Assembly: GCA_044892525.1 (NCBI GenBank)
Contig: CM097887.1
Coordinates: 72,106,001 to 72,170,000, forward strand
Direction: 5' to 3'
DNA: 64,000 bases
Source: Schmidtea polychroa
Taxonomy: Eukaryota
Part shown: one piece after another, positions 1 through 20,775 of the stretch
How the letters are laid out: every line of letters starts with the position of its first letter
Position numbering within the stretch: the first letter of the stretch is position 1
Notes under the pieces: generated by a model
Databases searched by the model: none
Told to the model about the DNA's origin: nothing
Seen by the model: the letters and a program-made list of their open reading frames with translations, nothing else
Position numbers and translations under genes: made by a program

Positions 1-294
1 TGTTGAATAGTCCAACCGATCAGGAAGGAGGAAGATTGAGCTGTTGAATAGTGCCAGCCAGTCGTAAGATCAAGTTGTTGAATAGTCCAACCGATCAGGA
101 AGGAGGAAGATTGAGCTGTTGAATAGTGCCAGCCAGTCGTAAGATCGAGTTGTTGAATAGTCCAACCGATCAGGAAGGAGGAAGATTGAGCTGTTGAATA
201 GTGCCAGCCAGTCGTAAGATCGAGTTGCTGAATAGTCCAACCGATCAGAAGGAAGAAGATTGAGCTGTTGAATAGTGCCAGCCAGTCGTAAAGG
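1..294. repeat. Tandem array of about 4 x 75-bp units in the element leader, each unit dimeric (41+34 bp, both halves starting TGTTGAATAGT)
   Basis: Units start at 1, 76, 151 and 226 and are nearly identical; the array is cut by the window edge. Confidence 0.95.
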
Positions 295-1558
295 CCTAGA
301 AAAGCGAGAGATAGCAGTTAAGCTACAATGAGATAATATTTAAATTACTAGTGATATGGAATATTAAAGCTAGCTAGAACAAATTGAATGTAATTTTGAA
401 AATTCGAGTTTAGAGAGGAAATAAACGAGCTCGTGGAAAAGAAAATAAGATTATAATGAAAAAGGAAAGGGAAGAAGGAAACGAATTAAAGAGATAATAG
501 AAAATAAAGAATAGATGAAATGATGATAATGAGTAAAGAGGAAAGTAACTAACTAATTAAAGGGATCCCAGTGAAGTAGAGAAACTCTACGGAATTTTTT
601 TTTTGGGTAAACCGGGAAAATGTATTTTTACCGGTTCCAGAGTAGAACCGAGTGGGATAATAGTAAATACGAAAAGTAAAACAGCGACAACAGCGCAAAG
701 GAATAAGAAAACGAAGGGGGGTAATAAGCAGAGACTGACAACGACCTATTTTTACTATAATTGATAACGAATAGATAATTATTACGACTTTATAGATAAT
801 TGTTACTACCCCATATAGATAATTTAAAATCGACGAAAAATACGGGCTGATGGGATATTATAACCCGCAGAAAGGATTTCACAAAAAGATAGGGGAAGCA
901 CAAACAGAAACCTAAAAGGCGTCTGTTTTTGAATGTTGTAGAAAGAATGATGAAGTCGTGTAAGCAAATGCAACACGAGATCATTTTTTCATTTTAGATA
1001 TCAAGCCAATCCAGCCAACCAAGACAATCCAGAACCTGCACAAAAGGAATTCGAAGAAATCGACAATCAACCAAGGATAAATCCATCCAGAACCCGCACC
1101 GAGAGACACAGCAACCGGAAGACTCCAGAACGGAAGAAGATCTCAGTAGCAGATTCATACAGAATATTTATCGAAGGAAACACAATCAGAACCGAACGCG
1201 TCCAATTCAATAGCCACTAATTACCAAGAAGCGTAAGAAAGGAATCACGGATAAACCCAATCTTAGATCTTCTAGTAAGCCAGGAGACGTATTATTTTCA
1301 GGAGACGAATTACAACAACTCAAAAGAGGACGATCCATTAAACATCAAAGAGGAATATCACAAGGATCCAGAAGAACCAATCAAGTACCCATATTTGACC
1401 AAGAAAATCTCGGATATACCCCTAGTCGATCTCGAAGTAGAGAAAGTCTGTCCGATATCACTAATAGTGTAGCAACGTCAACCGAGGAATTATCAGCCCA
1501 AAGTTTAGTCACATCGTTAGACAATTTAAAAGAAACAGACGAACCTAGAACACCAATC

Positions 1559-4288
1559 ATGACGAATGTCGTAAAAACCGACGAGTATAAAGAGAAGTTC
1601 AGAGGAGAACCGTTCAACGGAAATGCAAACAAGCTAGCAACGTTCATAACTAATTTTGAAGTTTATATCACTGTGTGTGGATGGACACCCGAAGCAATTA
1701 GTAAAAGGATGCCGTTGTTTTTGTGCGATAGTGCATTAGAGGTATATTTAGAAGCTAAAGAGAGAGACACGAAATTAGAAAAGTGGGAAGATATTAAAAC
1801 ATTCCTGAAGAAAACCTTCGGAGCCAGTAAGCCAATCAACCAGGCGTTGGGCGAACTAGCAAATAGGAAACAAAGAGCAAACGAATCGATAACATTATAT
1901 GCCAGTGAATTGCGGAGATTAGCAAAGAAAGCAATGAATGGAAAATTACCCGAAGAAAATCTGATTGGTTATTTCATAGAGGGATTACGCCGAGAAGAAG
2001 TAAGAGCCTCAGTAGGTTGTCAAATGTGCAAAACATTAGAGGAAGCCATAGATTGGGCTACAAGATGCGAGCTCCACCTTCCAGCTCAAATGAATATTAT
2101 GCAAGAGGAGGGAAGGATAGCGACAGCAATAGCGAAAGCGGATAACGGAGATAACAACAATCAAGAACCGAAAATGAATCAATTTATACCAGGAGCGCAC
2201 CAAATTTTCAAACCACCACAAGGACGATCAAACGGGAATAATGGTAATCGTAACAACCCGAATAATGAGAACAATTTCAATAATCGGCGAAATATGAACG
2301 ATAACAAGCAGTGCCGAACATGCGGTAAACCAGGACACTGGGACAGAGATTGTTATAGAAATTCAAATTGTAATCGTTGCGGACGGCGTGGACATACCGA
2401 AAATGTATGCCAATTGCGAGGCTGTTTTAACTGTGGTCAGCCAGGTCACATCTCCAGAGATTGCCGAGAAAGGGGCCAACAACAACGACCACCACAGCGA
2501 AATAATAATTATATAGCGAATCCGCAACGACAAAGTAACCCTAACGAAGGAAAACAAATGAACGTTATGCAGGAAATTTCGCAGATGAAACAGATGATGC
2601 AACAAATGATGAGACCAAGACAAGAACCAGCACCACAACAAACCCAGAACATACGTATGATGAGGAGTACCGAAAATCTCAACAATTATGAAGTGCATCA
2701 ACATGTACAAGAATGGCAAAGGCTACAGGCCGAGGAAGAGAGGATAAAACAAGAACGCAACCAACAACGACAAGAACAACCATTGCGAATAAATATGATG
2801 AAGTTAGTAAAAGACCTGAAGAGCCAGTATTGCTACAATTACGGGAAAAGCCCAAGGGTAGTACCCATGACTGAACCAGAAAAGGTAAAAGAAATAACAA
2901 CGGAAATGAAAACAGAGAATTCAACCACGATCTTAAAAGGAAACCAGAGAACTCAGAAAATATTCTGGAAAAAGATAAAGGATAAAATCGAAAAAGAACA
3001 TAATAAAGCGAAAACCGAGACAGAAGATGAAAATAACAAGAGCGAGGAACAAACCAGTCAACTAAATCACCAAATGCTACAAGAATTAGAATCAGAAGAA
3101 ACAACAATATTCGAAAGAAAGAAACTAAAGAGAGTACCAAGGATGAGAAACTTGCAAATCAATATGATGAAAAGGACAAAAGATGTAGCATCGTCAGACG
3201 AGGAAGAAGATTATGTAAGTAGTTTGGGTGGAGAAATACTACAGCCGAATGAAATAAGCGAACCCCCAAAAGAGGAAATCAAAGAGGAAGAAAGCGGAAA
3301 CGAGATAACCAGTGAAAGTGAAGACGAAGATATCGAAATAAAGTTGAGAAAAGCAAGGGAGGAAGCGATAAAACAGGTAGCCGAAATACTCCCAGTAGTA
3401 GTGAGGAACCAAGAGTTCATCGACGTAATACCATTCAGGCGATTCGTGCAAAAAGTGATGAAATTGGAAAGAAACGAGAAAGATCTAATACCAAACGAGG
3501 AGAAATCAAGTATAAAAAATTATATGGAAAAAATGAAGCAGGCCGATACCACGCGGTATGTAATAAAAATTGGAACGAGTAGAGGACTTGAAAGAATGTG
3601 GATAAAAAATACAGTCACCGACGAACTTTTCGATTGGATACGAGAACATTTGGGAAGTTCGAGAAAGAAAGAATATCTGTATCAATACCAAGGAGAACAG
3701 ATCAAACCAGATATGCACTTAGTAGATGCACTAATATGGCCAGGAGAAACGCAAATACTGAAGTTGCATAAAGAAAAACAACCAGCCAACATTTACGATT
3801 GGGCTAAAGATGCCAAGGCAGAATATGATTTTAATATCAAATTGAAATTAGAACAAATAAAACAATGTACTCTGAGACGAAACCTGGATAAGCTGATCAA
3901 ACAAATTCAAGAACAAGTAGAAGACAACTGGGATTTACTCATCACCAGACGAGCCCCAGCCATGTACGAACTAATGAGCCGGTTGCGAGATACAGAAATG
4001 CTCCGAATGAGTGATTGGAGAACCATAAATTTGATCCACAAATATGGAAGGTTAAAAGAGACCCAGCCACAGAGGTTGGAAATAACCATATGGTTACCGA
4101 ACGAAGAAAAACGACGAATAAAAATGAGCAATCAGAGTACAGTGGATGACTTGGTATCAAAAATAAACCAAGAGATAACGGAAAAGGTACGTAGAGAAAA
4201 TAATATTACGAGCGGAGGACGACACCTCGTTAAGCGAAATGGGTATGTGGGACAATCATCAGATAATCAGGATAGTACCAATGGATGA
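1559..4288 (+). CDS. gag: Gag: capsid-like N-terminus, 3 CCHC zinc knuckles, Q/N-rich and acidic regions, C-terminal ubiquitin-like domains
   Basis: CRTCGKPGHWDRDC, CNRCGRRGHTENVC, CFNCGQPGHISRDC at about 2312-2464; retrotransposon capsid-like segment PFNGNANKLATFITNFE...LFLCDSALEVY; 909-aa ORF. Confidence 0.93.
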   Translation: MTNVVKTDEYKEKFRGEPFNGNANKLATFITNFEVYITVCGWTPEAISKRMPLFLCDSALEVYLEAKERDTKLEKWEDIKTFLKKTFGASKPINQALGELANRKQRANESITLYASELRRLAKKAMNGKLPEENLIGYFIEGLRREEVRASVGCQMCKTLEEAIDWATRCELHLPAQMNIMQEEGRIATAIAKADNGDNNNQEPKMNQFIPGAHQIFKPPQGRSNGNNGNRNNPNNENNFNNRRNMNDNKQCRTCGKPGHWDRDCYRNSNCNRCGRRGHTENVCQLRGCFNCGQPGHISRDCRERGQQQRPPQRNNNYIANPQRQSNPNEGKQMNVMQEISQMKQMMQQMMRPRQEPAPQQTQNIRMMRSTENLNNYEVHQHVQEWQRLQAEEERIKQERNQQRQEQPLRINMMKLVKDLKSQYCYNYGKSPRVVPMTEPEKVKEITTEMKTENSTTILKGNQRTQKIFWKKIKDKIEKEHNKAKTETEDENNKSEEQTSQLNHQMLQELESEETTIFERKKLKRVPRMRNLQINMMKRTKDVASSDEEEDYVSSLGGEILQPNEISEPPKEEIKEEESGNEITSESEDEDIEIKLRKAREEAIKQVAEILPVVVRNQEFIDVIPFRRFVQKVMKLERNEKDLIPNEEKSSIKNYMEKMKQADTTRYVIKIGTSRGLERMWIKNTVTDELFDWIREHLGSSRKKEYLYQYQGEQIKPDMHLVDALIWPGETQILKLHKEKQPANIYDWAKDAKAEYDFNIKLKLEQIKQCTLRRNLDKLIKQIQEQVEDNWDLLITRRAPAMYELMSRLRDTEMLRMSDWRTINLIHKYGRLKETQPQRLEITIWLPNEEKRRIKMSNQSTVDDLVSKINQEITEKVRRENNITSGGRHLVKRNGYVGQSSDNQDSTNG

Positions 4289-7200
4289 ATTCCGAACAAG
4301 AGATGTAACATATCAAAAAGAAATACGAGACCGGATGAAAACGTTATATCAAAAATCTACAGAAATAATTGAAATCCACCAACAATGGTTAAAAGAAAAA
4401 GAGCTACAAGGAAAAATCACGAAATTAAATACCAGATCTTGCAGACGAACCCCATGGGAAAGAGTGTGGAATGCGGAAAGTAAGGAATGGGAAATCCGGA
4501 AAGGAACCTTCGTAGAAACAGACATTGGTGAGACAGAAAGTGAATCGGAGGAAGAAGAAGAGGAACCTCCAGAATATGAAGAGGAAGCAAGGGAACAGAC
4601 ATCAGATGACGAAGGCGAGACGGATGTCACATCAGAAAGCGAAAATGAAGCGAGACATATTCATGCAATGAGGAAAAAGGAACGTGAATATGCTGATATG
4701 GACGGCGAGGAAGCGACGGAAGCAAGAGAACGAGAAGAGAAAGAAAGATATAAACAATTAGGCGATATTTTAGCAATGGGAGCGAAAAATCAAAAACGCC
4801 AAGTAGTAGCGTTGGCTAACATCATCTTAAAGACATCAGAGAACATCCACAATCTGAGAGGAATGGCAAAGGCAATAGAGGAATACCGGCAATATAATGA
4901 ATGGTATCCAGAACAGCTAGAACAAATTATTCGAAAATGGAGAAATCAGGAATGGGCACAAGACACCCAGGAGAGGTATCACATCCGAATCAAGTATCCG
5001 GACAAGAGCATCGAGGAACTAGAGGTGCATCCAACAACAAAAATTAGAGAATTAAAAAAGAAATTAGCATATGAAACTCCATTCCATCTGCAACTGTTCG
5101 GAAAATCACTAGACGATAATGCAGACGTCGGGATAACCCCCATGAGATTGGAAGAGACAAATGTATTAACAATGGCAGAAACGTTGGGAAAACCGTTAAA
5201 AAGGAAAAGTAAAATTATTAAACCAACACAAGGCAGTTTGAGTACTCCAAGTCCGAACAAAGCACCAAGTAAATCTAATGAAACTGAAGAAGTTGAAGAG
5301 ATAATCCTGGAAGATAGTGACGATGAACCAGGAGAAAGATCACCGCTATTAGTGAGATGGCCGACAGGAGCCGAAATGTGGACTAATAACCAGCCATCAA
5401 CGAGTTATCAACAACCAACGAAACTGAACATCAAAGAAATCATCGACAATACTACGGAAACCGAAACGGATGAACAATTCCAGAAGCAAAGAGAACCAAC
5501 GAAAGTAACACCAGAAAGGCAAACCGACAAAATAATAGACGAATGGAATGAGTGGCTAAGAAATAACGACAGCTCATTACCCAGAACGGATAACGAAAGA
5601 AATCCGAATTACGAAAATACCAGAGAAGCAGGAACGATGATGGAAAAACGGGCAAAAGGAAGACCCAAGAAACAAGGAGAAAAGTCTGAGTTCAAAACCA
5701 AAGAACAATTAAAGCAAGAACAAGGGCAAGTTCGATTAGAAAAATTGGATAAAATAGTATGGGATCTAAAGGAAGCCCAACCAACGATCGAAAGAGGAGA
5801 AAAATGGATACGAGAATTGTTAAAAGATATGTTAATAATAACAAACCCACAACTTAGACGTTTGTGGCAACGGAAAGTAGCCAGTACGGAAGCTAGACAA
5901 TTATGGCACACCATTTCGGGGATAATCCCAAAGTTAATCAAAGAGAAAACGAAAACCACCAAAACGGATTGGGACGAAACAAAGAGAGTGATTGAGCAGC
6001 TCACGACAAATGCAAATGATGACGAGCATCACCTAGTGGTAATCACTTATTTGATGTATAATTTGATGGGACTAGCTGCGAGGAAAATACCAAATAAACA
6101 GTTTGCAAATCATGTAGAAATGACCGTTTCAATCATAGAGAATACTATTGAACCACACATTATTCGTGCAGGAGGATGGAAAAGACTGATACAAGCGCCA
6201 CGGAAAAATGAGCAAGAAAGGTCGATGCAAGTTAGATTGAAAAAACTGTTAAATGAACTAGAATGGGAACTACCGATGAAAGATCCCGCAAGCAGAAAAG
6301 CATCAATAAATTCGTTAATGATGACTATGATGATATGGATGTTGTGCACAAGTGGAGCAACAGGTTTCACCATCTACGATTGTGATAATATGATAATGAG
6401 AGATAAATACTCATTGAGAGACATAGAAGAATGCAGACAAGCCTCACCCAACAAATTGGACATCGTGAGAACAAAAGTTACTTACCATGTATATCAAGAA
6501 TCAGATTTCATCAGAACGCAAGCAAGGGAATGCGTAGTATCAAAAAAGGTACTCGCATATTACTGTGGACAATATTCGTATTCGACTCTTATACTACCCG
6601 GTCTGGATAAGGAAATCGTATCAATACAACGAGAGGATTGTAAAGAGCTATTTAGAACCGGAGCGCTAAAAATGCATAACGGAGTGACAATTCACGGACA
6701 AACTGGAATGATTAAAACCGAAAGTGTTTACGTAGCCGGAAAAGTAAAATCATCAGATGGGTCATGTAACGGAGGTACGTATACGATCCGAGGCGAGGTA
6801 ATATCGGGAGTTGTAGTGATCGAGTCTTACACGGTCGAATTAAAAGAATACGAAGCGCAATTTGACGCAAATAATTACCAAATGAAGACCAACCCAGCGT
6901 GTAAAGCTACAGAAAACGTATGCAGGACAGGAGTATCAACTATAATCTATGAAGCTAATACCCAAAAATGCCGACTCCAACTGTTAAAAAGTGCTTTGTT
7001 CAATGAAGTAAAAGGAGAAATATATGAGAACGAGAACGACGAGGATGGAAACGACAGAGTGAGAATGCGAAATGGAAAACCAATGCCACCATCTCCCAGA
7101 GAAAAGAGACTTTCAACGCAGAAGACACCAACAGCATTAATCACAGACGATCCAGATCTAGGTATGAGGTTTATCAAAGAGAAAGAAACCACCAAATGTG

Positions 7201-10200
7201 ACAGTATAGTATATAAAACCAATTACGCAGGTATCTATATGTCGAGACAAATAATCGATAGAGCAGTGGGAAAGATAGCAACGGAGGACGTAAAACTATA
7301 CTTATATGCAAATAATAAAATGGATTTTCTATTTCATCGCGGACAAACGACCTTACAAAAAGTATATTACGATCTGATACAAAACGATTGTTCATTGAAT
7401 AAAGAAATATTGAAAACAAAGCTAGCTATTGCGATAACGCACCCAGATAACACGATGCCATCACTCCCATTACCAGATGGACACTTTGGTAGAATGGTAG
7501 GAGAAGTGATGTACACATACCAGTGTACCAAGACGTATGCACGAATGCCAGAAAAATCCATACTACCCGAAAAGAGATGTGCAAATGAATTAGAAATCCG
7601 TTATAAAGGACAAAATCGATTCGTCCAACCAGTCACTAGAATTATGAATCCAGTGGGTTTCTACCCAAATCTCTTTAACTGTTCTAATGCATACGGACCT
7701 TTATATGAAAGGCCCGATGGGAAATGGATGATGTTACCGGGAAAAACCATATCCGAGGAGCCCAAGAAATTTGGATTAATAGAACTCGCCACAGAGCTGG
7801 ATTTCAAACCTATAGACGTGTCAAACGGTGGTATGTATTCCCCAGAAGATCTAGAAACAGCACGACTTAACGTACTCTTCCCAGCCAGACGAGAATCCAT
7901 TCTGTCTAATATGGTTACAATAACTGGGGGCACAAATTATCAATCAGGCCCGAATTACGAGCTGCTATTATCGCCAGACCATTTTCAACAAGCTACGTCA
8001 AACATGATGAAAGCAATGTGGGGAAGATTCTTAGTTTTTGGACAAATGATGGCCGGGATATTAGGGATCATACTCATAATTCAGATAGTCAGAGTAATAC
8101 TAACACAAATGTTAGCTTGTTTCGATATATACAAGCGGGAAAAGAAAGTTAACTGGAAAATGATAGTAGGCTTCTTACCATTTTTAGCTAAAACCATGGT
8201 ATTACATGGTCACTCAAAAGACATTCATCGGATAAAGCGATTGATTAAAATATTAACAAAGATTAAAGGAACCGACGAAGAAGTAGGCAGACGATTCCGG
8301 AAAGTAATGTACGATGAAGCAACAAGACGACAATTGAAAAAGAATAAGCCAAAATTCTTGGACCGATTTAGAAGCCAATCATCTAACAGCGATAGTGACG
8401 ACGATGATAACGGGAACGATAAATGTCTTTATCCAAACAGAAACCCAAACGAAAAACCAATGGAAACGGCACCATATTGGGAAAAGGAAAAGACAAACAC
8501 CTGGATCGCCAATGGAAGCTATATACCACCGGATATCGTGGGACCACAAACAGCTTTGACCATGACACAAAATATGTATCCGCAATTACCGAGTCAACCC
8601 GGTATGCATTATATGCCAACACGACGTACCAAAAGTGTAGATCAAGCAGATGACGTAAGAACAATAGCAGCGATGAGTTTACCTGGAGGTCCAGCAGTAA
8701 CGGTTATGATTCAAATCAATGGTAAAGAAACCAATGCTATGATAGACACCGGAGCTAATGTATCAGCGATAGCGATTAATCAAATCCCCAGTAAACACTG
8801 GAAGGATATCGAATCAACAACAATTCACATCATAGCATGTAGTAAAGAAACAGTGGACGTGGTCGGAAGATGGTGGACTACATTGAGATACCAGGACAAC
8901 GAAATTGAAACGTATTTGGCAGTAATACCAAAACTTAGCGTACCATGCATAATCGGAACGGATTTGATGCCAGAATTGTTAAAAGAAGTCGTAATTGACT
9001 TAACAACCATGTGTTTAAAAGACAAAACCGGTAGAATATGCAAGATGAATTCAGTCATCAGATGTCCAGAAAAAATAATAGTACCAGCAAAATCACAGAT
9101 GATTTGTCAGATAAAAGTGGATACGGGTATGGAAGGAGAAGTTATCTTTGAACCAAGCAAGTCATTTGAAAAGCGACGAGAATTACCACTCGCAAGAGAA
9201 ATAATCACAATAAACCAAGAAGGAGTGATACCGCTCAACATCACGAATTTCGAAGAGGAAGACAAAATCATTTATGAGAACGAAAAATTGGGAAGATTGA
9301 CCCCAATGATGGACATAGAATTACCGAAAGTGACCAACGAGATGATCAAAGATGATGAATTATGGACAATAGATAGTATGTTGTTGACGAATGACGAAAA
9401 GAAAAAATTGCACCGATTGTTGGTAGAATATAAAGATATATTCGCCATCTCAGATTTAGACTTGGGTACCTGTGATGTTACCTTACATGCAATACCACTC
9501 ATAGACGAAACCCCAATTGCATTAAGACCATACAAGCTAGCAGAAATGCAAAAAGAAATAGCCGAAGCCGAAGTACAAAAGATGCTGGACGCAAAAGTAA
9601 TCGAACCAAGTTGCTCACCTTGGCAATTCCCAGTGGTCATGGTGAAAAAGAAAGATGGCACCCAACGATTCTGTATCGATTATCGGAAGTTAAACGCAGT
9701 GACCAAGAGAGATACCTATCCATTGCCGGACATCAATGAGATGTTATTGATGTTGCAAGGGGCAGCATATTTTACTTCTTTAGATCTAAAAAGTGGATAC
9801 TGGCAGATTAAAGTCAAAGATGAGGACAAAGAGAAAACAGCTTTCACATTGGGACGAGATCTATATCAATTCAGGAAAATGCCATTTGGACTGACCAACG
9901 CACCAGCATCATTTCAACGGTGTATGAACTTTGTCACCCATGGAATCAAACAATGTATGGTATATATTGATGATTTACTAATCTATTCAGCGACATTTGA
10001 ACAACATCTGGAAGATATCCGAAACGTATTTATTAGATTAAGACAGTGGAAACTCAAACTCAAACCATCAAAATGCGATTGGGCAAAGGAAAAAGTCACG
10101 TTTTTAGGACACATAGTGTCAGCTAAAGGAAAGGAGCCAGATCCAAGAAACATTGAGAAAATAAAAACATGTCCAGCACCGAAAACTGTCACCCAAGTTC

Positions 10201-13200
10201 AGGAATTTCTAGGATTATGCGGATACTATCGCAAATTTATCAAAAATTATGCAGGAATTGCAAAACCAATCCAGGAATTAGTAAAGAAGGATATTTCGTT
10301 CATTTGGGAAAAAGAACAACAACAGGCGTTCGAAACGCTGAGAGATAAACTAATCGAAGCACCTATCCTCGTACACCCAGATTTTAAGAAGCCATTTCTA
10401 TTGGCAACGGATGCAAGCGGGTACGCGGCAGGCGCGATTCTGGGACAATTAGACGATGAGGGAAAAGAGAGAGTAATCGGGTATTACAGTCGAACATTCA
10501 AAAAGCACGAAAAGAACTATTCGGTAACAGAACGAGAAGCATTGGCTATAATACAAGCTATCAAACACTTCCGATATTTACTATGGGGACATGAGATATG
10601 CATAACCACAGATCATCAACCATTAGTGTGGTTAGGGCAACATAAAGAAGCGTCCAGTAGACTGATGCGATGGGCCATGCAATTGCAAGAATACTCCCCA
10701 TTTATAAAATTCAAAGCGGGAAGAGCAAATGCCAACGCCGATTGTATGTCAAGATTTATTTTCCCAGATTTGGTGGATTCAGAAATGCAACGCATATGCT
10801 TAATAGTAGCGGAAGATTTGGATTTCTGTCAATTACGAAAGGACCAACAAGAGGACGCGGAATTAAAACAAATTATCGATTATGTAAAAACCGGAAAGAC
10901 AGAGGTATATGCGAAAGACCAAAAATTAAAAGAACATATGGATAAACACCGACACCGATATATTATAGAGAAAGATTGGTTGCTGATAATGGATGGGGAA
11001 AAACGATTAATGTGTATACCGGAAAACCGACGAAAAGAGTTACTAACGCAATATCACGATGGGAGATTGGGAGGACATATGTCATCGAAAAAGACGTTAG
11101 CAAGAATGAAACAGAAATATTTTTGGCCTACGTTAACTGAAGATGTAACCGAATGGGTAAAAAATTGTCTAACTTGTGCAACCAGGAAGAATACTGGATC
11201 GAAATGGAAAGCACCTTTAACGCCAATGCCAGTACCAATAGAACCAATGACAATGATATCCATGGACGTAGTTGGTCCACTACCAGAGTCAGATAAAGGA
11301 AACGTTTACATTCTAGTGATCACAGACTTTCTTACGAAATTTCCAGAAGCATTCGCGATGCCAGACCAAAAAGCTAAAACAATCGCAAAAATTTTGGTAG
11401 AAGAGATATGTTGCCGATATGGAACACCAAAACAAATCTTAACCGATCAGGGAACTAATTTTATGAGTGAGATAATGAGCGAAGTAACAAATTACTTCAA
11501 AATAGCAAAACTAAGAACATCTCCATACCACCCTCAAACCAATGGGATGACGGAAAGATTTAATGGAACACTTATACAAATGTTATCAAACTACGTTGAC
11601 CGTCACCAACGAGATTGGGACGAATATATAAACCTATGTCTTATGGCGTACAGAATGTCGATTCACGCATCAACGAAAATGAGCCCATTCAAATTAATGT
11701 ACGGAAGAGAATGTAACATGCCAATGGACCTGGAATACCAACCACCGATATCGCAGTATATGGAGATCGATGATTATGTTACGAAATTCAAGGAAAGAAT
11801 GCAAGAAATTTGGGAAACTGCGGGATTAAATATCAAGTTCTACCAGGAAAGTTATAAAGATTTACACGATCGAAAGAAAAACGTGAAGCAACATACGTTC
11901 CAAACAGGTGATTGGGTAATGATAGAAACCCCGGAATTAATTCCAGGAACCACAAAAAAGTTACAACGCAACGGAAAAGGACCATATGAGATCTTATTCG
12001 TAGGCGAAACTAATGTAAGAGTGAAATTGGTAAATAACCCCTTTACCAGACCAATATACGTAAACGTGGCACGATGCAAATCAATTCCAAAAACAGCCAC
12101 TAGTCAACCAGAAGGCCGTACATTAACCACACGTTCGCAAACCTACCGAATGAACATGATGCAACAACTCGCAGAACCGATCACTGGACGATTAGGTATC
12201 CAACCATCAGAAGCGGAAAAGATTGTAAAAGAGGTAAAAATTAAAATACCTGGATGGGCAAAAGATCGATTAGATTTCGAAATATTAGGAGGATTATTGA
12301 CGATGATCGAGAACTATGCAAATAGAGAAAGGACACACCCATTATTGCGAGTAGTCAAAAGCCAATGGCCAATATTATTTACAATAACAGATCATTACGG
12401 AGACACACCATTACACAAACTCATGAAAGTAGGTAACAACGAGCAAATACTAGAAACAATAGAAGCATTTCACGACTGCAAGCGATCAACAGAACAAACA
12501 AACAACCAAGGTTACACACCATTAATGATAGCCGCAAACAGAGGCAAAACAAAAGACATTATAACCGCATTACTCGATACCGGATCGAAAATAACTACAC
12601 AAGACCACGAGCGGAAAAACGCTCTACATCATGCTATCGGAGGGAGAAGTACCGAGGCGTTCACGTCATTGATGGAACTACTATCATATGAGGACAATCG
12701 GGAAGTTGGAAACATGTATGATGGATTGTTAACAGCGATCAAAGAAAAACTGACGACAATTACCGGAATATTAATTACATGGAGAAATCCAATTCGAAAC
12801 GATTATATGATCAACGTAAACGAAGCGTTCACGAGAGGAGAGAACACGCTGATGAGAGAAGCTATGAAAGGACATCATTTATTCGAAATCCCGAATCAAT
12901 TACTAGAACGAGGGATAAAATTCACAAATCACAAAGACGAACAGTTAACAAAAAAGCGAATCGACACATTCGAAAAATCACTATTTCAATTTACTAACCA
13001 AGTACGAAATAAATATTGGGAAACGGTAAGTGTGTTATATATGATGGACACGATGAATAACATCCGCGAGAATTACATGGATATTATCCAAATACTTACA
13101 GCAGAGGAACGAATCAATAATCCAAACGGAAAGAAAACGAAAATAAGGTATGAGAAATCCAGGGAATCAAAGTCAACAACGAACCAAACGGTCACAAACA

Positions 13201-15368
13201 ACGTCATCGAAACCAAATCAATGAGTATAGATCAAGAGGCAATAATACGCAAAGCAAAAGAAGTGTTCTTTGAGGAAATGCTAGAGCTGCCAGACGAAAT
13301 AATATTGTCCAAAATAATAAAAGCCGTACACACATACGCAAGAGATCAAACCACGGGTTTAGATATCGGGAAAATCAAAACCTTCTTGCCTCGAGCATTT
13401 ACGATGGTAACAAAGGATTCCAGAACACCCCTACAACAAGCAATACTAGCAGCGAAAGAAAATAGAGCAATAACGATCGTGAGAATCCTTGGAGAGATGG
13501 GCGAGGAAACCAACACGAAAAATGAACAAGGTGAAACCGCCATGATGTATGCAGCTATAACGAAAATACACCCAAAAACACTCCACATCCTACATCAATC
13601 AGGATCGAAACTAGACGAAAAGTCCAATGAAGGAAATTCCACCTTGGACTGGGCAACCATACAGCCAAACTTAGAAATGATCAGATTTATTTGCAAAAAT
13701 GCGACAAAAGAAGAAGTTGAAAATATGTGCAAAAACACATCTCAGTTTCAATGGAATACGGTACGGAAAAATCTAGAAGCAATGAAATTATTATTGACCT
13801 GGAGAGTACCACAAAATAATAAATATGCGATAAATGTAAACGAATTCTACGAAAACGGAGAAAATGCGATGGTAAAGAATACCCTAACTAAGGGGGGGAC
13901 GCCTAAAATTATTTTAATAGTATTAAATAGAGAAGACCTAAAATTCACGCAAAATCAGAACGAGCAACAACGAATTGGGAAACATCGTCGTATGCAATTG
14001 AGAGAGTTAGTTAAAGAATGGGATAGAAAGAGACATGCTGCAACGGGTAGAAAAGAGTTTGAATTCGAAGCAAAATTAGCAAGAAACAGAGTGCTAACAG
14101 CATATCGCAGATTATTGAACGATATAAATGTCGAGGACGACATTTTAAATGACAGCGGGGGAGATAAACACGATGACAATGATGGAAAAGGCCGGAAAGA
14201 GGATAAAGGGAAAAGAGAACCGGAAGAGGATAAACCGGAAAACAAGGATTCGGATACGAAAAGAGAGGGAAACAGCCCGGGAACTAAGACCAAAGAGGAG
14301 GAAAAACCGAATAATGGAAAACAGAGGGTATGCCTACCTTTCATTAACAAAGAAATAGAGACAAATATGATATTAATGATAATTATGCTTACCATGATAG
14401 AGTTCGTAACAGCTCATGGAGGGACGAGGACGATAAAAGAAACCAAAGAAGCGGAGAATCAAGATAGCAAAGAGGATGAACTAAAGCAAGAAAAGAAAAA
14501 GCAAGCACAAGAGCAGCAGTGGGATTTAAAGGAAGAATGGGACTTAAAGGAAAGGTGCATACTAGGAAGATGCATGTCTAGAGCGTATCAGAAACTAGTA
14601 CTGATAAATGAGGACACAGAACCAATAACAGAAGTAAGAATACAAGAAGCATACCGAAATCGAGACGGGAAGAGAATAACGAACGTCAAAGGAAAAGAGG
14701 TACACCTAGGAAAAGGTGGTGAAGTAGTAATAACGCAGATCCAACCTAGAAAAGAGCACAAAGTCTGTATTTCAAGATTAGGACCAGGCGAGAGATGCCA
14801 TCAATATGTGACGCAGCAGCAGCCGCCGAAAGAATACACGGTTTGTATCTGGAGAAACGAATCAAAAAGAGAATGCCGACGATACCCGGGGAAAAGAGGA
14901 AAGAAAAGGAAAAACCACGACGAAAAGGACGAAGGAGGAAAGCACAAGAAAACCGGCGAGGAAGCTCAGGACAACTATGTTTCGGAGGAAGAGATGGAAA
15001 AAATACAAAAGATGGCAAAGGAGGGTATGAACGAGGAAATAGCAAGAATACGGGAAATGATGAAAGGAAATGGCAAAAGAGGAAACGAGAAAGGCATAGA
15101 AGCGATATCAACATTAACGAACAAGGAGAAACCAGAGAATATAAGCGTGAAGCAGATGATGTGGATCAGTGGGATAATAATAACAGGGGCATTCCTAATC
15201 ATAACGGGGGGAACAATAAAAATAATTAAGGATAAACGACATCGCGGAGAACTAGAAATGACCCGAATCAGAAACTTCCAACATCGAGTGAAACGACCAA
15301 GTGATATCAAACAAGGACAGTGGGTGGAGGCCTGGAACGTTCAGCGCCCTCCAAACTCACGTATATAG
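4239..15368 (+). CDS. pol: 3709-aa polyprotein: UBL, Bcl-2-like, Env-like glycoprotein, aspartic protease, RT, RNase H, integrase, ankyrin repeats, membrane-anchored C-terminal segment (frame open from 4179)
   Basis: Uninterrupted ORF; MIDTGANVS (about 8740), YIDD (about 9962), TDASGYAAGAIL (about 10408), HDGRLGGH...C..C, DVVGPLP, TDQGTNF, GMTERFN, GPY (about 11980). Confidence 0.95.
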   Translation: MGMWDNHQIIRIVPMDEFRTRDVTYQKEIRDRMKTLYQKSTEIIEIHQQWLKEKELQGKITKLNTRSCRRTPWERVWNAESKEWEIRKGTFVETDIGETESESEEEEEEPPEYEEEAREQTSDDEGETDVTSESENEARHIHAMRKKEREYADMDGEEATEAREREEKERYKQLGDILAMGAKNQKRQVVALANIILKTSENIHNLRGMAKAIEEYRQYNEWYPEQLEQIIRKWRNQEWAQDTQERYHIRIKYPDKSIEELEVHPTTKIRELKKKLAYETPFHLQLFGKSLDDNADVGITPMRLEETNVLTMAETLGKPLKRKSKIIKPTQGSLSTPSPNKAPSKSNETEEVEEIILEDSDDEPGERSPLLVRWPTGAEMWTNNQPSTSYQQPTKLNIKEIIDNTTETETDEQFQKQREPTKVTPERQTDKIIDEWNEWLRNNDSSLPRTDNERNPNYENTREAGTMMEKRAKGRPKKQGEKSEFKTKEQLKQEQGQVRLEKLDKIVWDLKEAQPTIERGEKWIRELLKDMLIITNPQLRRLWQRKVASTEARQLWHTISGIIPKLIKEKTKTTKTDWDETKRVIEQLTTNANDDEHHLVVITYLMYNLMGLAARKIPNKQFANHVEMTVSIIENTIEPHIIRAGGWKRLIQAPRKNEQERSMQVRLKKLLNELEWELPMKDPASRKASINSLMMTMMIWMLCTSGATGFTIYDCDNMIMRDKYSLRDIEECRQASPNKLDIVRTKVTYHVYQESDFIRTQARECVVSKKVLAYYCGQYSYSTLILPGLDKEIVSIQREDCKELFRTGALKMHNGVTIHGQTGMIKTESVYVAGKVKSSDGSCNGGTYTIRGEVISGVVVIESYTVELKEYEAQFDANNYQMKTNPACKATENVCRTGVSTIIYEANTQKCRLQLLKSALFNEVKGEIYENENDEDGNDRVRMRNGKPMPPSPREKRLSTQKTPTALITDDPDLGMRFIKEKETTKCDSIVYKTNYAGIYMSRQIIDRAVGKIATEDVKLYLYANNKMDFLFHRGQTTLQKVYYDLIQNDCSLNKEILKTKLAIAITHPDNTMPSLPLPDGHFGRMVGEVMYTYQCTKTYARMPEKSILPEKRCANELEIRYKGQNRFVQPVTRIMNPVGFYPNLFNCSNAYGPLYERPDGKWMMLPGKTISEEPKKFGLIELATELDFKPIDVSNGGMYSPEDLETARLNVLFPARRESILSNMVTITGGTNYQSGPNYELLLSPDHFQQATSNMMKAMWGRFLVFGQMMAGILGIILIIQIVRVILTQMLACFDIYKREKKVNWKMIVGFLPFLAKTMVLHGHSKDIHRIKRLIKILTKIKGTDEEVGRRFRKVMYDEATRRQLKKNKPKFLDRFRSQSSNSDSDDDDNGNDKCLYPNRNPNEKPMETAPYWEKEKTNTWIANGSYIPPDIVGPQTALTMTQNMYPQLPSQPGMHYMPTRRTKSVDQADDVRTIAAMSLPGGPAVTVMIQINGKETNAMIDTGANVSAIAINQIPSKHWKDIESTTIHIIACSKETVDVVGRWWTTLRYQDNEIETYLAVIPKLSVPCIIGTDLMPELLKEVVIDLTTMCLKDKTGRICKMNSVIRCPEKIIVPAKSQMICQIKVDTGMEGEVIFEPSKSFEKRRELPLAREIITINQEGVIPLNITNFEEEDKIIYENEKLGRLTPMMDIELPKVTNEMIKDDELWTIDSMLLTNDEKKKLHRLLVEYKDIFAISDLDLGTCDVTLHAIPLIDETPIALRPYKLAEMQKEIAEAEVQKMLDAKVIEPSCSPWQFPVVMVKKKDGTQRFCIDYRKLNAVTKRDTYPLPDINEMLLMLQGAAYFTSLDLKSGYWQIKVKDEDKEKTAFTLGRDLYQFRKMPFGLTNAPASFQRCMNFVTHGIKQCMVYIDDLLIYSATFEQHLEDIRNVFIRLRQWKLKLKPSKCDWAKEKVTFLGHIVSAKGKEPDPRNIEKIKTCPAPKTVTQVQEFLGLCGYYRKFIKNYAGIAKPIQELVKKDISFIWEKEQQQAFETLRDKLIEAPILVHPDFKKPFLLATDASGYAAGAILGQLDDEGKERVIGYYSRTFKKHEKNYSVTEREALAIIQAIKHFRYLLWGHEICITTDHQPLVWLGQHKEASSRLMRWAMQLQEYSPFIKFKAGRANANADCMSRFIFPDLVDSEMQRICLIVAEDLDFCQLRKDQQEDAELKQIIDYVKTGKTEVYAKDQKLKEHMDKHRHRYIIEKDWLLIMDGEKRLMCIPENRRKELLTQYHDGRLGGHMSSKKTLARMKQKYFWPTLTEDVTEWVKNCLTCATRKNTGSKWKAPLTPMPVPIEPMTMISMDVVGPLPESDKGNVYILVITDFLTKFPEAFAMPDQKAKTIAKILVEEICCRYGTPKQILTDQGTNFMSEIMSEVTNYFKIAKLRTSPYHPQTNGMTERFNGTLIQMLSNYVDRHQRDWDEYINLCLMAYRMSIHASTKMSPFKLMYGRECNMPMDLEYQPPISQYMEIDDYVTKFKERMQEIWETAGLNIKFYQESYKDLHDRKKNVKQHTFQTGDWVMIETPELIPGTTKKLQRNGKGPYEILFVGETNVRVKLVNNPFTRPIYVNVARCKSIPKTATSQPEGRTLTTRSQTYRMNMMQQLAEPITGRLGIQPSEAEKIVKEVKIKIPGWAKDRLDFEILGGLLTMIENYANRERTHPLLRVVKSQWPILFTITDHYGDTPLHKLMKVGNNEQILETIEAFHDCKRSTEQTNNQGYTPLMIAANRGKTKDIITALLDTGSKITTQDHERKNALHHAIGGRSTEAFTSLMELLSYEDNREVGNMYDGLLTAIKEKLTTITGILITWRNPIRNDYMINVNEAFTRGENTLMREAMKGHHLFEIPNQLLERGIKFTNHKDEQLTKKRIDTFEKSLFQFTNQVRNKYWETVSVLYMMDTMNNIRENYMDIIQILTAEERINNPNGKKTKIRYEKSRESKSTTNQTVTNNVIETKSMSIDQEAIIRKAKEVFFEEMLELPDEIILSKIIKAVHTYARDQTTGLDIGKIKTFLPRAFTMVTKDSRTPLQQAILAAKENRAITIVRILGEMGEETNTKNEQGETAMMYAAITKIHPKTLHILHQSGSKLDEKSNEGNSTLDWATIQPNLEMIRFICKNATKEEVENMCKNTSQFQWNTVRKNLEAMKLLLTWRVPQNNKYAINVNEFYENGENAMVKNTLTKGGTPKIILIVLNREDLKFTQNQNEQQRIGKHRRMQLRELVKEWDRKRHAATGRKEFEFEAKLARNRVLTAYRRLLNDINVEDDILNDSGGDKHDDNDGKGRKEDKGKREPEEDKPENKDSDTKREGNSPGTKTKEEEKPNNGKQRVCLPFINKEIETNMILMIIMLTMIEFVTAHGGTRTIKETKEAENQDSKEDELKQEKKKQAQEQQWDLKEEWDLKERCILGRCMSRAYQKLVLINEDTEPITEVRIQEAYRNRDGKRITNVKGKEVHLGKGGEVVITQIQPRKEHKVCISRLGPGERCHQYVTQQQPPKEYTVCIWRNESKRECRRYPGKRGKKRKNHDEKDEGGKHKKTGEEAQDNYVSEEEMEKIQKMAKEGMNEEIARIREMMKGNGKRGNEKGIEAISTLTNKEKPENISVKQMMWISGIIITGAFLIITGGTIKIIKDKRHRGELEMTRIRNFQHRVKRPSDIKQGQWVEAWNVQRPPNSRI
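5780..6195 (+). other. Bcl-2-like helical domain within the polyprotein
   Basis: BH2-like ending IENTIEPHIIRAGGWKRLI preceded by a hydrophobic central helix HHLVVITYLMYNLMGL; canonical BH1 NWGR absent. Confidence 0.55.
6303..8110 (+). other. env: Env-like fusion glycoprotein domain of chuvirus/Monjiviricetes type within the polyprotein
   Basis: Internal signal peptide SLMMTMMIWMLCTSGATG then FTIYDC; motifs YSLRDIEEC, YQESDF...AREC...YYCGQYSY, GSCNGG, NDCSLNKEIL, GEVMYTYQC, CANELEI...FVQPVTRI; REKR at 7098-7109; TM FLVFGQMMAGILGIILIIQIV at about 8028-8100. Confidence 0.82.
8700..9020 (+). other. Retropepsin (aspartic protease) domain
   Basis: IQINGKETNAMIDTGANVSAI ... CIIGTDLM. Confidence 0.92.
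9480..10760 (+). other. Reverse transcriptase and RNase H domains (Gypsy type)
   Basis: SPWQFPVVMVKKKDG, YIDD, FLGH, FLLATDAS, YSVTEREALA, TDHQPL, NANADCMSR. Confidence 0.97.
11000..12080 (+). other. Integrase: HHCC zinc domain, DDE core, GPY/F module
   Basis: HDGRLGGH..KT...YFWP...CLTC; ISMDVVGPLP; ILTDQGTNF; PQTNGMTERFN; GKGPYEI. Confidence 0.96.
12380..13900 (+). other. Two ankyrin-repeat modules fused C-terminal to the integrase
   Basis: GDTPLH, GYTPLMIAA, KNALHHA (12390-12680) and RTPLQQA, GETAMMYAA, GNSTLDWA (13417-13700). Confidence 0.88.
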
Positions 15369-15888: not shown

Positions 15889-15973
15889 ACCAAACCTAGC
15901 TTAAAATGTAAATAATTGTAAATAAAATATCGAACCTGTATCGATAAGAACTATTTGTACATATAATTATAGA

Positions 15974-17362
15974 ATGGATAAACGACAAAGAGAAGAGTTC
16001 AGAGAGATTGTCGAGCAAGTCCGAAAATCTACAACGATCAGAATACACAAACATGTTATGTGCGGAATATGTGAAAAGTTGTTAAAGGAACCTCACCAAA
16101 CGCAATGTGGATGCAGAGTATGTAAAGAATGTATCAGTGAAGCAATAAAGAATAGACCACAGAGGTGCCCGGTGTGTAAAGAGACACTAATATCGAGTTT
16201 AGAAGACACTAACGAGGATAAAGCCGCAGTGAAAGACATGTTAAACACCAACCTGGGATGCAAAAATGCCCCATGCGAATGGAAAGGAGTAATATGGAAG
16301 GTAGTACAACATATGGGAGAATGTATGTACAGAATTGGCCAGTGTGAAAGGTGCCATAAAACCATTCGAGCAAGCGAAGAAAAAGAACATCAAAGGCAGT
16401 GTGAAGAGAGATTGGAAAGATGTGAACACTGTGGAGAAATAGATACGTGGATAAATCTCACCCTCAAACATCACAATGTCCAAGAGGAGAGAGTATGTGC
16501 GGAGTTCGGTGGGGAATGCCCAAACGGATGTAACCAAGGGGAAATAATAAAGGTGGCACAGCATCTAAGGGAATGCGAAAAGAAAAGAATGACATGTGTA
16601 CTAGGTAGATGGGGTTGTCAGAAATTACTACACCGAGGTGAGTTACCACATCATTTAGTAGAAAATGCTTCAACTCACGCAGAAATGTGGTCGACTGCGT
16701 TACAAGAAAGCGAAGAGAAAGTAAAACAAATGGAGATAGAGATAACATCGTTGAAAGTGTTAGTCAAAGAACTACTAGAAGAAAGGGAAGCGTTCGAAGA
16801 AGCCCGAGCAAACATAAAGATGCAAATAAACCGAACAGAAATTAGTAATAATCAGGCCAAGGAGCTACATCAGAAAATACGGGAAATAAATCTAAATGAG
16901 ATAACCCCAACAGCACCCTACATATGGAAAATAACGGGAGTAAAAGAAAGAATACGAAAAGCAAAAACCGGAGAAGAGACAAGAATAACAAGTCCTACAT
17001 TCCATTCTTGGAAAAATGGGTACAAAATGAAAATGAAGATATATCCCAACGGGGACGGAACCGGATTAGATACGCACTTTTCGATTTTCTTTCTGTTATG
17101 TAAAGGAGAATACGACGAAATATTAGAATGGCCGTTCCAGGCAAAAATCGATATTACCCTGATGAACAACCAAAGTATACATGAGCAAAGCTTCAAAACA
17201 ACGGGGAATCAAATAGCTTACCAGAGGCCCCTCAACGAAGAAGGATCAGCAACAGGAGCACCCACGTTCATCTCACAACAAAGAGTAGAAGATATGGCGA
17301 GAAATGATACCATATATATCAAGATGACCGTGAGGAAAGAGGAGAAGGGTAGAACGGAGTAA
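15974..17362 (+). CDS. TRAF-like protein: RING, TRAF zinc fingers, coiled coil, MATH domain; intronless
   Basis: CGICEKLLKEPHQTQCGCRVCKEC...CPVC; CKNAPCEWKG...HMGEC; CPNGC...HLREC; MATH: YIWKI...SPTF...GYKMKMKIYPNGDG...HFSIFF...GEYDEILEWPF...DTIYIKMTV. Confidence 0.93.
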   Translation: MDKRQREEFREIVEQVRKSTTIRIHKHVMCGICEKLLKEPHQTQCGCRVCKECISEAIKNRPQRCPVCKETLISSLEDTNEDKAAVKDMLNTNLGCKNAPCEWKGVIWKVVQHMGECMYRIGQCERCHKTIRASEEKEHQRQCEERLERCEHCGEIDTWINLTLKHHNVQEERVCAEFGGECPNGCNQGEIIKVAQHLRECEKKRMTCVLGRWGCQKLLHRGELPHHLVENASTHAEMWSTALQESEEKVKQMEIEITSLKVLVKELLEEREAFEEARANIKMQINRTEISNNQAKELHQKIREINLNEITPTAPYIWKITGVKERIRKAKTGEETRITSPTFHSWKNGYKMKMKIYPNGDGTGLDTHFSIFFLLCKGEYDEILEWPFQAKIDITLMNNQSIHEQSFKTTGNQIAYQRPLNEEGSATGAPTFISQQRVEDMARNDTIYIKMTVRKEEKGRTE

Positions 17363-17500
17363 CCAATCGAATAATGTTGTATATAATAATCTGTATATAT
17401 CGGTGTATATAACCAATAAAATATTATATAATAATAGTATGAAAACCCTAAATACGAAAACCCAAAAATGATGCGAAAATTTCCCAAGAAACAGTAAATA

Positions 17501-18610
17501 ATGAATAAATTCCTTTTCATAATAAAAAGATTAATCGATGTCTATGATTTAGAGATGACACAAGAGAAAATAACCGAAACTGCGATAGCCCCAACCAATG
17601 TCAACAAGACACAAATTCCCCGAGAACATAATAAAAAATGGAACAAAGTAATGTTCCAACTAACTAATCTCACCCGAAATCACATCGAAGAAACTAGAGA
17701 AGATGAGAATAGTCAATACCAATGGTTAATACACAACTTAAGAGCGGAAGCAGAAGCATGCAAAAGAGCATCAAAATGGGCGTCACTAGAAAATACCCGC
17801 CAAGAAGCACACAGCCACTACTTAAAGCAGCTAGTGCAGGAAGCGAGAAAAAGACTTACCGATGAGAACACCAAGCGCGAAGCGGAAAAACAAATAGAAG
17901 ACAGGAAAATGATGCACTTAGTGGCAGAAGCGAGAAAATGGAAAAGACAAAACAGAGAAATGAAAAAAGAGATGAAAGAATTGCCCATGAGACTCGGATA
18001 TGAAAGCGAACAAGGTAAATGGGAGGAGAATTTAATAATAAAGGAAGAATTGAAAAGGTTGAGAAAGGTCGCCGCCCGAAGCCAAACCTGGCAAACAAAG
18101 GCTATGGAGTTTGAGCGACATTTGGCAATGAAGTGCGACATAAGAGAGCACGAGAATGCCGCAATGGAAGAGATGATAACCCAACAAGCGGGACGGGTTG
18201 TGGAATTAGTAAATCAGGTAGAAGAGATGAAAAGAGACCTTAATGGATTACAAGGATCGCTGGAACAAAGAAACATGGTCCTAGCGGGAAAAAATAGAAA
18301 ATTAGAAAACGAAAGGAAAATGTACACCGAAAATATTAAAAACTTAGAAATAGAAATTGAAAAATGGAAGGGCGACGAGAAAATCAAGGCCCTAGACAAA
18401 CAGATAGAGGCGAAAGACGAAGAGACAAGGTATCTCACCTATCTGCTCGACGAGGAATTGAACATCACTCGAGCTCTAAGAGACGAAATTAATGAATTGA
18501 GAGCTCAAATCCCCCAATATTACCTACCATACGACCCTATTGCGATACAGTTACATCCCGCGGTCGATAGTGATGAAGGTTATGTAGGCCAGGAGGAAAC
18601 CTTCGTATAA
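17501..18610 (+). CDS. Accessory long coiled-coil ORF of unknown function (alternative start 17555)
   Basis: 369-aa E/K/R-rich ORF, co-oriented, no recognised domain. Confidence 0.75.
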   Translation: MNKFLFIIKRLIDVYDLEMTQEKITETAIAPTNVNKTQIPREHNKKWNKVMFQLTNLTRNHIEETREDENSQYQWLIHNLRAEAEACKRASKWASLENTRQEAHSHYLKQLVQEARKRLTDENTKREAEKQIEDRKMMHLVAEARKWKRQNREMKKEMKELPMRLGYESEQGKWEENLIIKEELKRLRKVAARSQTWQTKAMEFERHLAMKCDIREHENAAMEEMITQQAGRVVELVNQVEEMKRDLNGLQGSLEQRNMVLAGKNRKLENERKMYTENIKNLEIEIEKWKGDEKIKALDKQIEAKDEETRYLTYLLDEELNITRALRDEINELRAQIPQYYLPYDPIAIQLHPAVDSDEGYVGQEETFV

Positions 18611-18785
18611 GGGTGGATGAAAAGATGAAAAACTAAAAACCGGGACGTATATCCCAAACAAAAAAAAAAAAAATTAAAGTATTGTAAAAGTATTCAAGGG
18701 ACTGTAACCCAAACTATTAAATTTTATATCAATGTATACGTATAAGTCGCACTATAGCGCACCATTAACTGTACATATTATAGAT

Positions 18786-19484
18786 ATGAAAATCGAGGAA
18801 ATGATAGAAATTATGAGCGACGTAGAAGAGGGAGAGATTGAGGCAGAAACAACAGAAACACAAACGCTAAAGGCCGAGTTACGGGAAGAGAAATACGAAA
18901 ACGGGAGATTAATAAACAAATACCTAGAGGACCGGAAAATGATAAAGGTGTTAAAGAAAGAGTGCGAAGCGTTGGGGGAAATAAAAAGAGAAACGGAAGA
19001 GGAAAATGAATGGCTACACGAACAAAGGAAGCGAGGGAAAAACTGGGAAAAGATAGCGGAAGAACTATGGAAAGAGAGGGCAAGCTTCAAAGCAAAGGAG
19101 GTAATCCAAGACTACTGGAAAACTGAGGCGAAGGAGCGCCAAACAGCTATAAATAAATTAAAACGACAACTAGAAGAAAACCAACGGGAAAGTAAAGAAA
19201 TGAGGAAGTGGGTCCGCAAATATAGAGAAATAGAAAGAAAACATCAACAACAAAATTACCTGCAAGAAAACGAACAAGATCTCCTACAAATCGAGCTAAA
19301 AAGAAACCTTGAAAAGAAAAGGGAAGAAATTAGACGCTTGGAAAAAGAAATTAGACATCTAAAGAGAGAAGCCCGTGAAAAAGACCGACAATTGGAAATG
19401 CTGCCCGAGTTAAGACACAGGGTAATTAAAGCAGAGTCCACCTTGATGAGAATCAGCGAAAATAATCCAAATCAGAACCATTAA
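18786..19484 (+). CDS. Accessory coiled-coil ORF of unknown function (ATG 18786 preferred; ORF open from 18732)
   Basis: E/K/R-rich heptads; TAG acceptor 2 nt upstream of ATG 18786. Confidence 0.75.
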   Translation: MKIEEMIEIMSDVEEGEIEAETTETQTLKAELREEKYENGRLINKYLEDRKMIKVLKKECEALGEIKRETEEENEWLHEQRKRGKNWEKIAEELWKERASFKAKEVIQDYWKTEAKERQTAINKLKRQLEENQRESKEMRKWVRKYREIERKHQQQNYLQENEQDLLQIELKRNLEKKREEIRRLEKEIRHLKREAREKDRQLEMLPELRHRVIKAESTLMRISENNPNQNH

Positions 19485-19524
19485 ATTAAGGGTCATTAAA
19501 ACCAATTGTAAATAAACATAATGA

Positions 19525-20193
19525 ATGTATAATAGTATCATGCGAGGCGAGATGATGATAACAATGATGGTATTGATGATTCTGATGGAGAACAAACAAT
19601 TAAACGCCCAACCGAAAATCGTACGAGATTACCGCAATCAAAATCAAGAACCTAAACAAGAATCCGGCAAATGCACATACCCTATGACCGTAAAAACCCA
19701 TATCATCCAAACCATTCAATCAACCCGATCCCACATCAACAACATCCAAACAATGTGTAAAAAGAACCCCATTTGTAAAATGATAAACAAACAAATCTTC
19801 GAACAAAGCCAACAGATCGACCAGTTGGAACAACAAATGCAACAAGAGGATTTTGAAAATCTTGTAGAAAAGCCAAAAACACCTCCCGAGATCAATGACA
19901 CCCATTATCTCATATATGTGGTGATCGCAGAGACCCTCCTCCTATGTCTACCAATATTCATGAAAATTTACGAAATTCGAAATAGATGTAGAGTCTCGAC
20001 ATCAATAAGAGTAACCTCGAACCAAAATCCTCAAGAAGTGCCCCTGACAAATCTTAACCCAACCCCATTCCGACCTCGAACCCCGAGTAATCAACCAATC
20101 CAGCCGAAATCTAATAGTCAGACCTATCTCAACATCAATACCCAAACCAACCAACAGCCGCCAGCAGAAGCATCAATGGTTAACAGTTCATAA
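19525..20193 (+). CDS. Accessory predicted type I membrane protein
   Basis: Hydrophobic N-terminus MMITMMVLMILME...LNA, helical ectodomain with 3 Cys, TM YLIYVVIAETLLLCLPIFM, P/N/Q-rich tail. Confidence 0.7.
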   Translation: MYNSIMRGEMMITMMVLMILMENKQLNAQPKIVRDYRNQNQEPKQESGKCTYPMTVKTHIIQTIQSTRSHINNIQTMCKKNPICKMINKQIFEQSQQIDQLEQQMQQEDFENLVEKPKTPPEINDTHYLIYVVIAETLLLCLPIFMKIYEIRNRCRVSTSIRVTSNQNPQEVPLTNLNPTPFRPRTPSNQPIQPKSNSQTYLNINTQTNQQPPAEASMVNSS

Positions 20194-20374: not shown

Positions 20375-20775
20375 GAATGAATGAATTAAGTTAATTATGC
20401 AATTGCGGGACGCAATTTTGATGGGTCCCCGAGTGATTTGTTGGGCTGAGTCGAAAATTTAATCGTTGAAAAATAGGAAAGTAGGGAAGTAGAACATTAA
20501 GAAAAATAATAATAAAATAAATAAAATCAGAAATAAAATAGAATAAGATATAAGGAAAATAATAATTAAGACATAAGAATTAAAACAAAAAATAAAATTA
20601 AGAAAAGATTAAAATAGAACAAGTTGACAAATAAATAAAGAGGAATTCAAGAAATAATAAGGAAATTAAGGAAATAAATAGAAAAACATATTAAAAATAA
20701 AGAAAATAAGGAAAAAACAACCTAAAAACAAGAAAATTATATTAAATTAATAGAAATAAGCGGTACTCAACTCTG

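Follow-up and report, generated by a model that had tools for sequence, protein, structure and literature searches.

The stretch of Schmidtea polychroa DNA analysed here (64,000 nucleotides of contig CM097887.1, positions 72,106,001 to 72,170,000 of the forward strand; hereafter the window) carries a giant long terminal repeat (LTR) retrotransposon of the Burro type, whose polyprotein includes, immediately ahead of its envelope glycoprotein (Env), what is very probably a degenerate domain of the Bcl-2 family. We propose, with a probability of about 0.5 for the account as a whole, that this domain was captured from an animal host, has been conserved and keeps the host cell alive while tethered at the endoplasmic reticulum (ER).

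Motifs and fold of the Bcl-2-like domain

The original prediction described an all-helical segment with a Bcl-2 homology 2 (BH2)-like ending and a hydrophobic core helix 45-55 residues earlier, and both features hold. The motif, EPHIIRAGGWKRLI at 6150-6191 of the forward strand, is in frame within an open reading frame (ORF) of 3,729 codons (4179-15368), and the predicted model is all-helical, with eight helices, at low confidence (pLDDT 58). The hydrophobic helix LVVITYLMYNLMGLAA (6033-6080) spans the residues from 46 to 31 ahead of the first Gly of GGW, and its start and the BH1 loop fit the expected distance. BH1 is degenerate, as had been claimed. Because a His 47 residues ahead of GGW falls at the position of the NWGR Arg in three host-like Bcl-2 ORFs, BH1 of the window domain is read as DEHH, in a register that may be off by one or two residues but that offers no Trp, Gly or Arg wherever it is set; the BH1-to-BH2 spacing of 47 residues is gap-free in the alignment with the host-like ORFs. 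At BH2 the GGW and its spacing are kept and His replaces the first Trp. The BH3 and BH4 regions are covered in the structural alignment to the low-confidence model, without a confident sequence alignment. NWGR is absent from all eight Burro sequences examined, its loss being fullest in the window domain. A second Burro-like family of the same genome, here called the sister family (L061-L073, L075, L076 and L052), has a better-preserved Bcl-2 domain before a homologous Env; its BH1 reads GVNRDK, with Lys where the host-like ORFs have the NWGR Arg, and its BH2 has the Trp. The more distant relative P0154 keeps an Arg at or beside that position.

Profile comparisons point to remote homology with the Bcl-2 family. 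A profile built from seven stand-alone Bcl-2-family ORFs of the same genome (six host-like, one Polinton-borne) scores the domain at 14.0 bits, and since this score is reached by none of 2,000 shuffles, and the five best of 165 polyprotein tiles all overlap the domain, the likeness goes beyond chance. A profile made from Burro domains only ranks Bcl-xL first (E 1e-4), and the sister family matches Pfam Bcl-2 at the same polyprotein position with E of about 1e-6 (29.1-29.8 bits), two of its copies (L052 and L061) exceeding the Pfam cut-off at 33.3 and 32.2 bits. In the fold comparison, made with the low-confidence model, BHRF1 and Bak come out on top, Bcl-xL also stands above N1 (rank 35) and A52 (rank 45), and the top matches include divergent viral Bcl-2 proteins (BHRF1, A179L, M11L, DPV022 and F1L). 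Bcl-2 proteins are thus placed first by profile and fold rankings alike, and Bcl-2 kinship and, on a low-confidence model, a Bcl-2 fold are strongly supported, if indirectly.

Conservation and origin

The domain is strongly conserved and constrained. Between the window and the subfamily copy L074, 77 of the differences in its 154 codons are silent and 14 replace an amino acid (94% identity), a level equalled in the reverse transcriptase (RT, 94%) and higher than in Gag and the upstream linker (85% each). Against P0154, the N-terminal two-thirds of the domain are 58% identical and the capsid 59%, with the flanks at 31-46%. Among the same-genome copies, 150 of which were scored out of 742 candidates, the domain is identical in 44, at least 94% alike in all and interrupted by a stop in three.

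Capture from an animal host is likely. The eight Burro Bcl-2-like domains form one group in the tree (94/96, on long branches), and for this reason a single capture fits the sequences; the presence or absence of the domain requires four changes on the Env tree (22 sequences, poor resolution), and this would fit losses or recombination. Of 17 relatives that share the Gag-Env-Pol layout, 10 lack the domain. One relative, P0008, carries Env, protease (PR), RT and integrase (IN) and is labelled as a Flavobacteriaceae metagenome-assembled genome protein, likely through host contamination.

The Env signal peptide as a possible anchor

As had been claimed, the domain lies inside a retrotransposon polyprotein, directly 5' of the Env signal peptide. 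The domain has no transmembrane segment of its own, and the next hydrophobic segment is the Env signal, whose core lies 46 residues past the BH2 Trp. It had been claimed that this signal anchors the domain after cleavage, mimicking the Bcl-2 tail anchor, and only the first part of that claim is plausible. Each of 22 Env sequences has a short hydrophobic segment ahead of its xYDC/xFDC start. These sequences were chosen from 150 matches because they extend upstream of that start, and they comprise eight with a Bcl-2 domain, ten polyproteins without one and four free glycoproteins in which the segment is N-terminal. Because it occurs in all ten Bcl-2-less polyproteins and all four free glycoproteins, the segment reads as an ordinary signal peptide of Env that does not depend on Bcl-2. 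Its window copy is weakly hydrophobic (best 19-residue Kyte-Doolittle mean 1.23), and the likeness to a tail anchor is weakened accordingly. When an internal signal is cleaved, the chain ahead of it stays in the cytosol, hanging on the ER membrane, and a signal-peptide tether of the domain at the ER, possibly short-lived, is plausible on this topology. It is favoured by the lack of a separate anchor in any of the eight Bcl-2-bearing sequences and by the Env start in them, 48-78 residues past GGW. An Env-type signal would lead to the ER and not to mitochondria.

Proposed role and alternative readings

According to the proposed account, the Gag-to-Bcl-2 part would be translated in the cytosol, the internal signal would start ER translocation of Env, and signal peptidase would cleave before FTIYDC, so that the Bcl-2 piece would remain as the last cytosolic domain, held on the leftover signal; the odds that it stays anchored in this way seem even. 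The ER-held domain could then restrain pro-apoptotic Bcl-2 proteins or ER-stress death, acting alongside the IAP-type RING and TRAF-like ORFs of the element. A survival role is slightly favoured, and classic BH3-groove binding in the window family is doubtful.

Several results weigh against this account. Searched alone, the domain matches Pfam Bcl-2 (PF00452) at E 0.025-0.034 and 15.1-15.6 bits, under the cut-off of 31.4 bits, and a ribosomal L17 match scores about as high. Foldseek with the low-confidence model returned nothing at E <= 0.001 and the ESM Atlas gave no Bcl-2 lead. The ratio of replacement to silent substitution rates (omega) is 0.01-0.06 in every measurable region of the polyprotein. 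Within the sister family, the domain (omega 0.13) is under looser constraint than Env (0.03) and under stricter constraint than its linker (0.27). The loss of NWGR lowers the chance of BH3 binding but leaves it possible. It would not be decisive because divergent poxviral Bcl-2 proteins that have lost BH1 retain an Arg contact (PMC8310162) and deerpox DPV022 binds Bak, Bax and Bim without recognisable BH motifs (PMC11209288).

The strongest alternative is a Bcl-2 fold that has lost its groove and serves as a signalling scaffold, which would act together with the ankyrin, RING and TRAF-like products of the element in ubiquitin or innate-immune signalling and not on Bax/Bak, much as poxviral proteins of the A52/N1 type have turned the Bcl-2 fold into a scaffold. 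The disappearance of the BH1 letters from all eight Burro sequences, most fully from the window domain, would agree with it, as would the fact that the element also encodes TRAF-like, IAP-type RING, ankyrin and ubiquitin-like parts, and the presence of N1 and A52 among the fold matches; yet the groove-bearing BHRF1, Bak and Bcl-xL outrank those two in the low-confidence comparison, and the Lys of the sister family and the Arg of P0154 are kept at or beside the BH1 Arg position. A scaffold appears rather unlikely. Less probable still is a Bcl-2-derived structural piece with no part in cell death, which as a cytosolic leader attached to the Env signal would link Gag to the Env-bearing membrane during particle assembly; the constant position of the domain, after the Gag region and before the Env signal, and a conservation on a par with capsid and RT are what such a leader would show, but the same layout does without it in the relatives that lack the domain. 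That the GGW arose by chance in a helical linker unrelated to Bcl-2, a reading to which the sub-threshold Pfam score, the similar L17 score and the Foldseek and ESM Atlas results would lend themselves, is largely refuted, and very improbable, given the shuffles, the positional homologues at E 1e-6, the gap-free BH1-to-BH2 spacing and the lead of Bcl-2 proteins in both profile and fold searches.

Relation to known systems

A BCL2-like motif has been reported in Burro-2, -3 and -4 (PMC6431247, citing Grohme 2018). Burro elements have been described as exceeding 30 kb, with a 4,873-aa polyprotein in which a ubiquitin-like motif comes before BCL-2 and env is flanked by BCL2 and PR, and meddling with apoptosis by the motif was offered as a suggestion only (PMC6431247, Arkhipova and Yushenova 2019). 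A Bcl-2-like domain before env in Burro is thus already published and is not new as a feature; what is added here is evidence that the domain is real and constrained, with fold-level support, strong conservation, occurrence in several distant element families and the exact motif losses. The literature search turned up no experiment on the Burro Bcl-2 domain or on anchoring by a signal peptide, although the primary Burro papers and their supplements may hold one. Burro elements are large and are expressed under PIWI loss (PMC8532177, PMC11410931, PMC13238120).

The window element is assigned to Burro by layout, Burro-1 to -4 being compared by description only. It shares with Burro/GYPSM1 a size of about 30 kb, a polyprotein of 4.7-5.1k aa, a Gag with three CCHC knuckles, the ubiquitin-like, BCL2-like, env and PR-RT-RNase H-IN order, ankyrins and MATH/TRAF; the TRAF/MATH part is a downstream accessory ORF in the window element, whereas it lies inside ORF1 in GYPSM1 and upstream in the D. 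tigrina element. For the dUTPase-like segment between PR and RT, no Pfam match at E <= 5 was found for 9030-9329; the published Burro call used HHpred. The BIR-RING protein of Burro1 (B-IAP) is reported to guard stem cells (Lee et al. 2026 Dev Cell, as cited in PMC13465017), and it resembles the present case as anti-death-type cargo on a Burro element; however, B-IAP acts on caspases and was functionally tested, whereas the window cargo is a Bcl-2-like domain known from sequence. No BIR was found by Pfam in 11 element segments or in the 168-codon RING ORF upstream of gag, which is IAP-type and BIR-less, and BIR may not be universal among Burro elements.

With cellular Bcl-2 proteins (Bcl-xL, Bax and Bak) the window domain has in common a profile match over helices 4-8, the BH1-BH2 spacing, EPxIxxxGGW and a predicted eight-helix bundle; it differs in its score below the Pfam cut-off, the missing NWGR, the BH2 His, the lack of its own tail anchor and its place within a polyprotein. 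Divergent viral Bcl-2 proteins (BHRF1, A179L, M11L, DPV022, F1L and the Bcl2 present in adintoviruses; PMC8502044) are likewise cargo of viruses or virus-like elements with eroded BH motifs, but they are encoded as separate genes by DNA viruses and often carry a C-terminal anchor of their own, whereas the window domain has no BH1 Arg and is fused into a larger protein of a reverse-transcribing element.

The host element

The element is a Ty3/gypsy LTR retrotransposon of 30.0 kb (30,023 bp between the outer LTR ends; Table 1). Its 5' LTR lies upstream of the window (L085:4279-8141), the target duplication is 4 bp (AAAG), the 3,863-bp LTRs are 100% identical, and the insertion is recent. In the window copy Gag and the remainder occupy two overlapping frames, with the break within 4179-4288; open frames of at least 4,700 codons are found in 67 of the 150 scored copies, 59 of them of exactly 4,732 codons, and a single Gag-to-ankyrin polyprotein is therefore the usual form of the family.

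Table 1. Features of the Burro-type element, in window coordinates
Feature	Position	Strand	Basis or remark
75-bp tandem repeats of 5' leader	1..291	+	run on upstream of the window
Gag ORF	1214..4288	+	Retrotrans_gag, three CCHC knuckles
Polyprotein remainder, 3,729 aa: ubiquitin-like, Bcl-2-like, Env, PR, RT, RNase H, integrase, ankyrins, C-terminal membrane segment	4179..15368	+	
Ubiquitin-like segment, 5' of Bcl-2-like domain	4977..5180	+	PF00240 E 0.0037, below cut-off
Bcl-2-like domain	5790..6197	+	model residues about 21-157 superpose on Bak 25-184
First helix, BH4 position	5796..5843	+	structural alignment; not reliably aligned by sequence profiles
BH1 position (DEHH replaces NWGR) and core hydrophobic helix	6015..6080	+	alignment to host-like Bcl-2 ORFs
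BH2-like motif EPHIIRAGGW, His for first Trp	6150..6191	+	sequence
Putative internal signal peptide of Env	6303..6365	+	cleavage inferred before FTIYDC; same segment in 22/22 sequences
Env, Monjiviricetes-type fusion glycoprotein; transmembrane segment 8016-8090	6366..8090	+	PF24664 E 1.5e-72
Protease, RT, RNase H, integrase, Ty3/gypsy order	8703..11534	+	Pfam
Ankyrin repeats, two groups	12438..13688	+	PF12796 E 7e-20
Accessory TRAF-like ORF (RING, MATH)	15926..17362	+	PF21355 E 2.4e-27
Three more accessory ORFs (370, 258 and 222 aa)	17498..20193	+	no family above cut-off
3' LTR, 3,863 bp, TG...CA	20439..24301	+	100% identical to 5' LTR

Directly 3' of the 5' LTR, a stretch (L085:8142-8168) resembles a tRNA-Pro primer binding site. 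The 168-codon ORF lies between gag and the 5' LTR, some 1.0-1.5 kb before the window begins (L085:8463-8969, forward strand); it ends in an IAP-type RING (PF13920, E 3.7e-11; best PDB matches the cIAP2/cIAP1 RING) and, over 104 aa, shares 29% identity with the tail of a BIR-bearing 393-codon ORF from another repeat family. That multi-copy family (L087-L092) was met among the BIR candidates, of which 150 of 309 were scored; in L089, TRAF-like and coiled-coil-like ORFs on the same strand resemble, by eye, the accessory block of the window element. At the C-terminus of the polyprotein, 14355-15230 holds a second signal-like segment, a Cys-containing stretch and a transmembrane-like segment, possibly encoding a second membrane protein, and gave no Pfam match at E below 0.07. 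A 264-codon ORF within the LTR (22973-23767), present twice per element for that reason, matches no family above cut-off, and outside the element two ORFs (58239-59240 and 60554-61069) resemble, by eye, fragments of DNA transposases.

Elsewhere in the genome, a host gene resembling Bcl-xL (matched at E 4e-20) has seven nearly identical copies in a 0.9-Mb region of contig C4 (L031-L037). Bcl-2-like genes that stand alone, one without introns and one apparently split by an intron, lie in dispersed repeats (L053-L058; L046-L051, L059 and L060; flanks L077-L084) that are likely Polintons, because integrase and A32-like ATPase ORFs occur in the same repeats.

Significance

A tentative and, on balance, unlikely extension of the proposed account is that Burro swapped the Bcl-2 tail anchor for the Env signal, yielding one ER-anchored Bcl-2 per Env, and that with the IAP-type RING and TRAF ORFs this would make up an anti-death kit against the stress of Env production, which may protect planarian stem cells as is reported of the Burro1 IAP, and would do so without the BH1 Arg in the window family. 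If the domain does block cell death, this very abundant planarian retroelement would have two anti-death genes, which would extend the reported Burro1-IAP mutualism, and a Bcl-2 protein would prove to be anchored through a signal peptide of viral type that is not its own.
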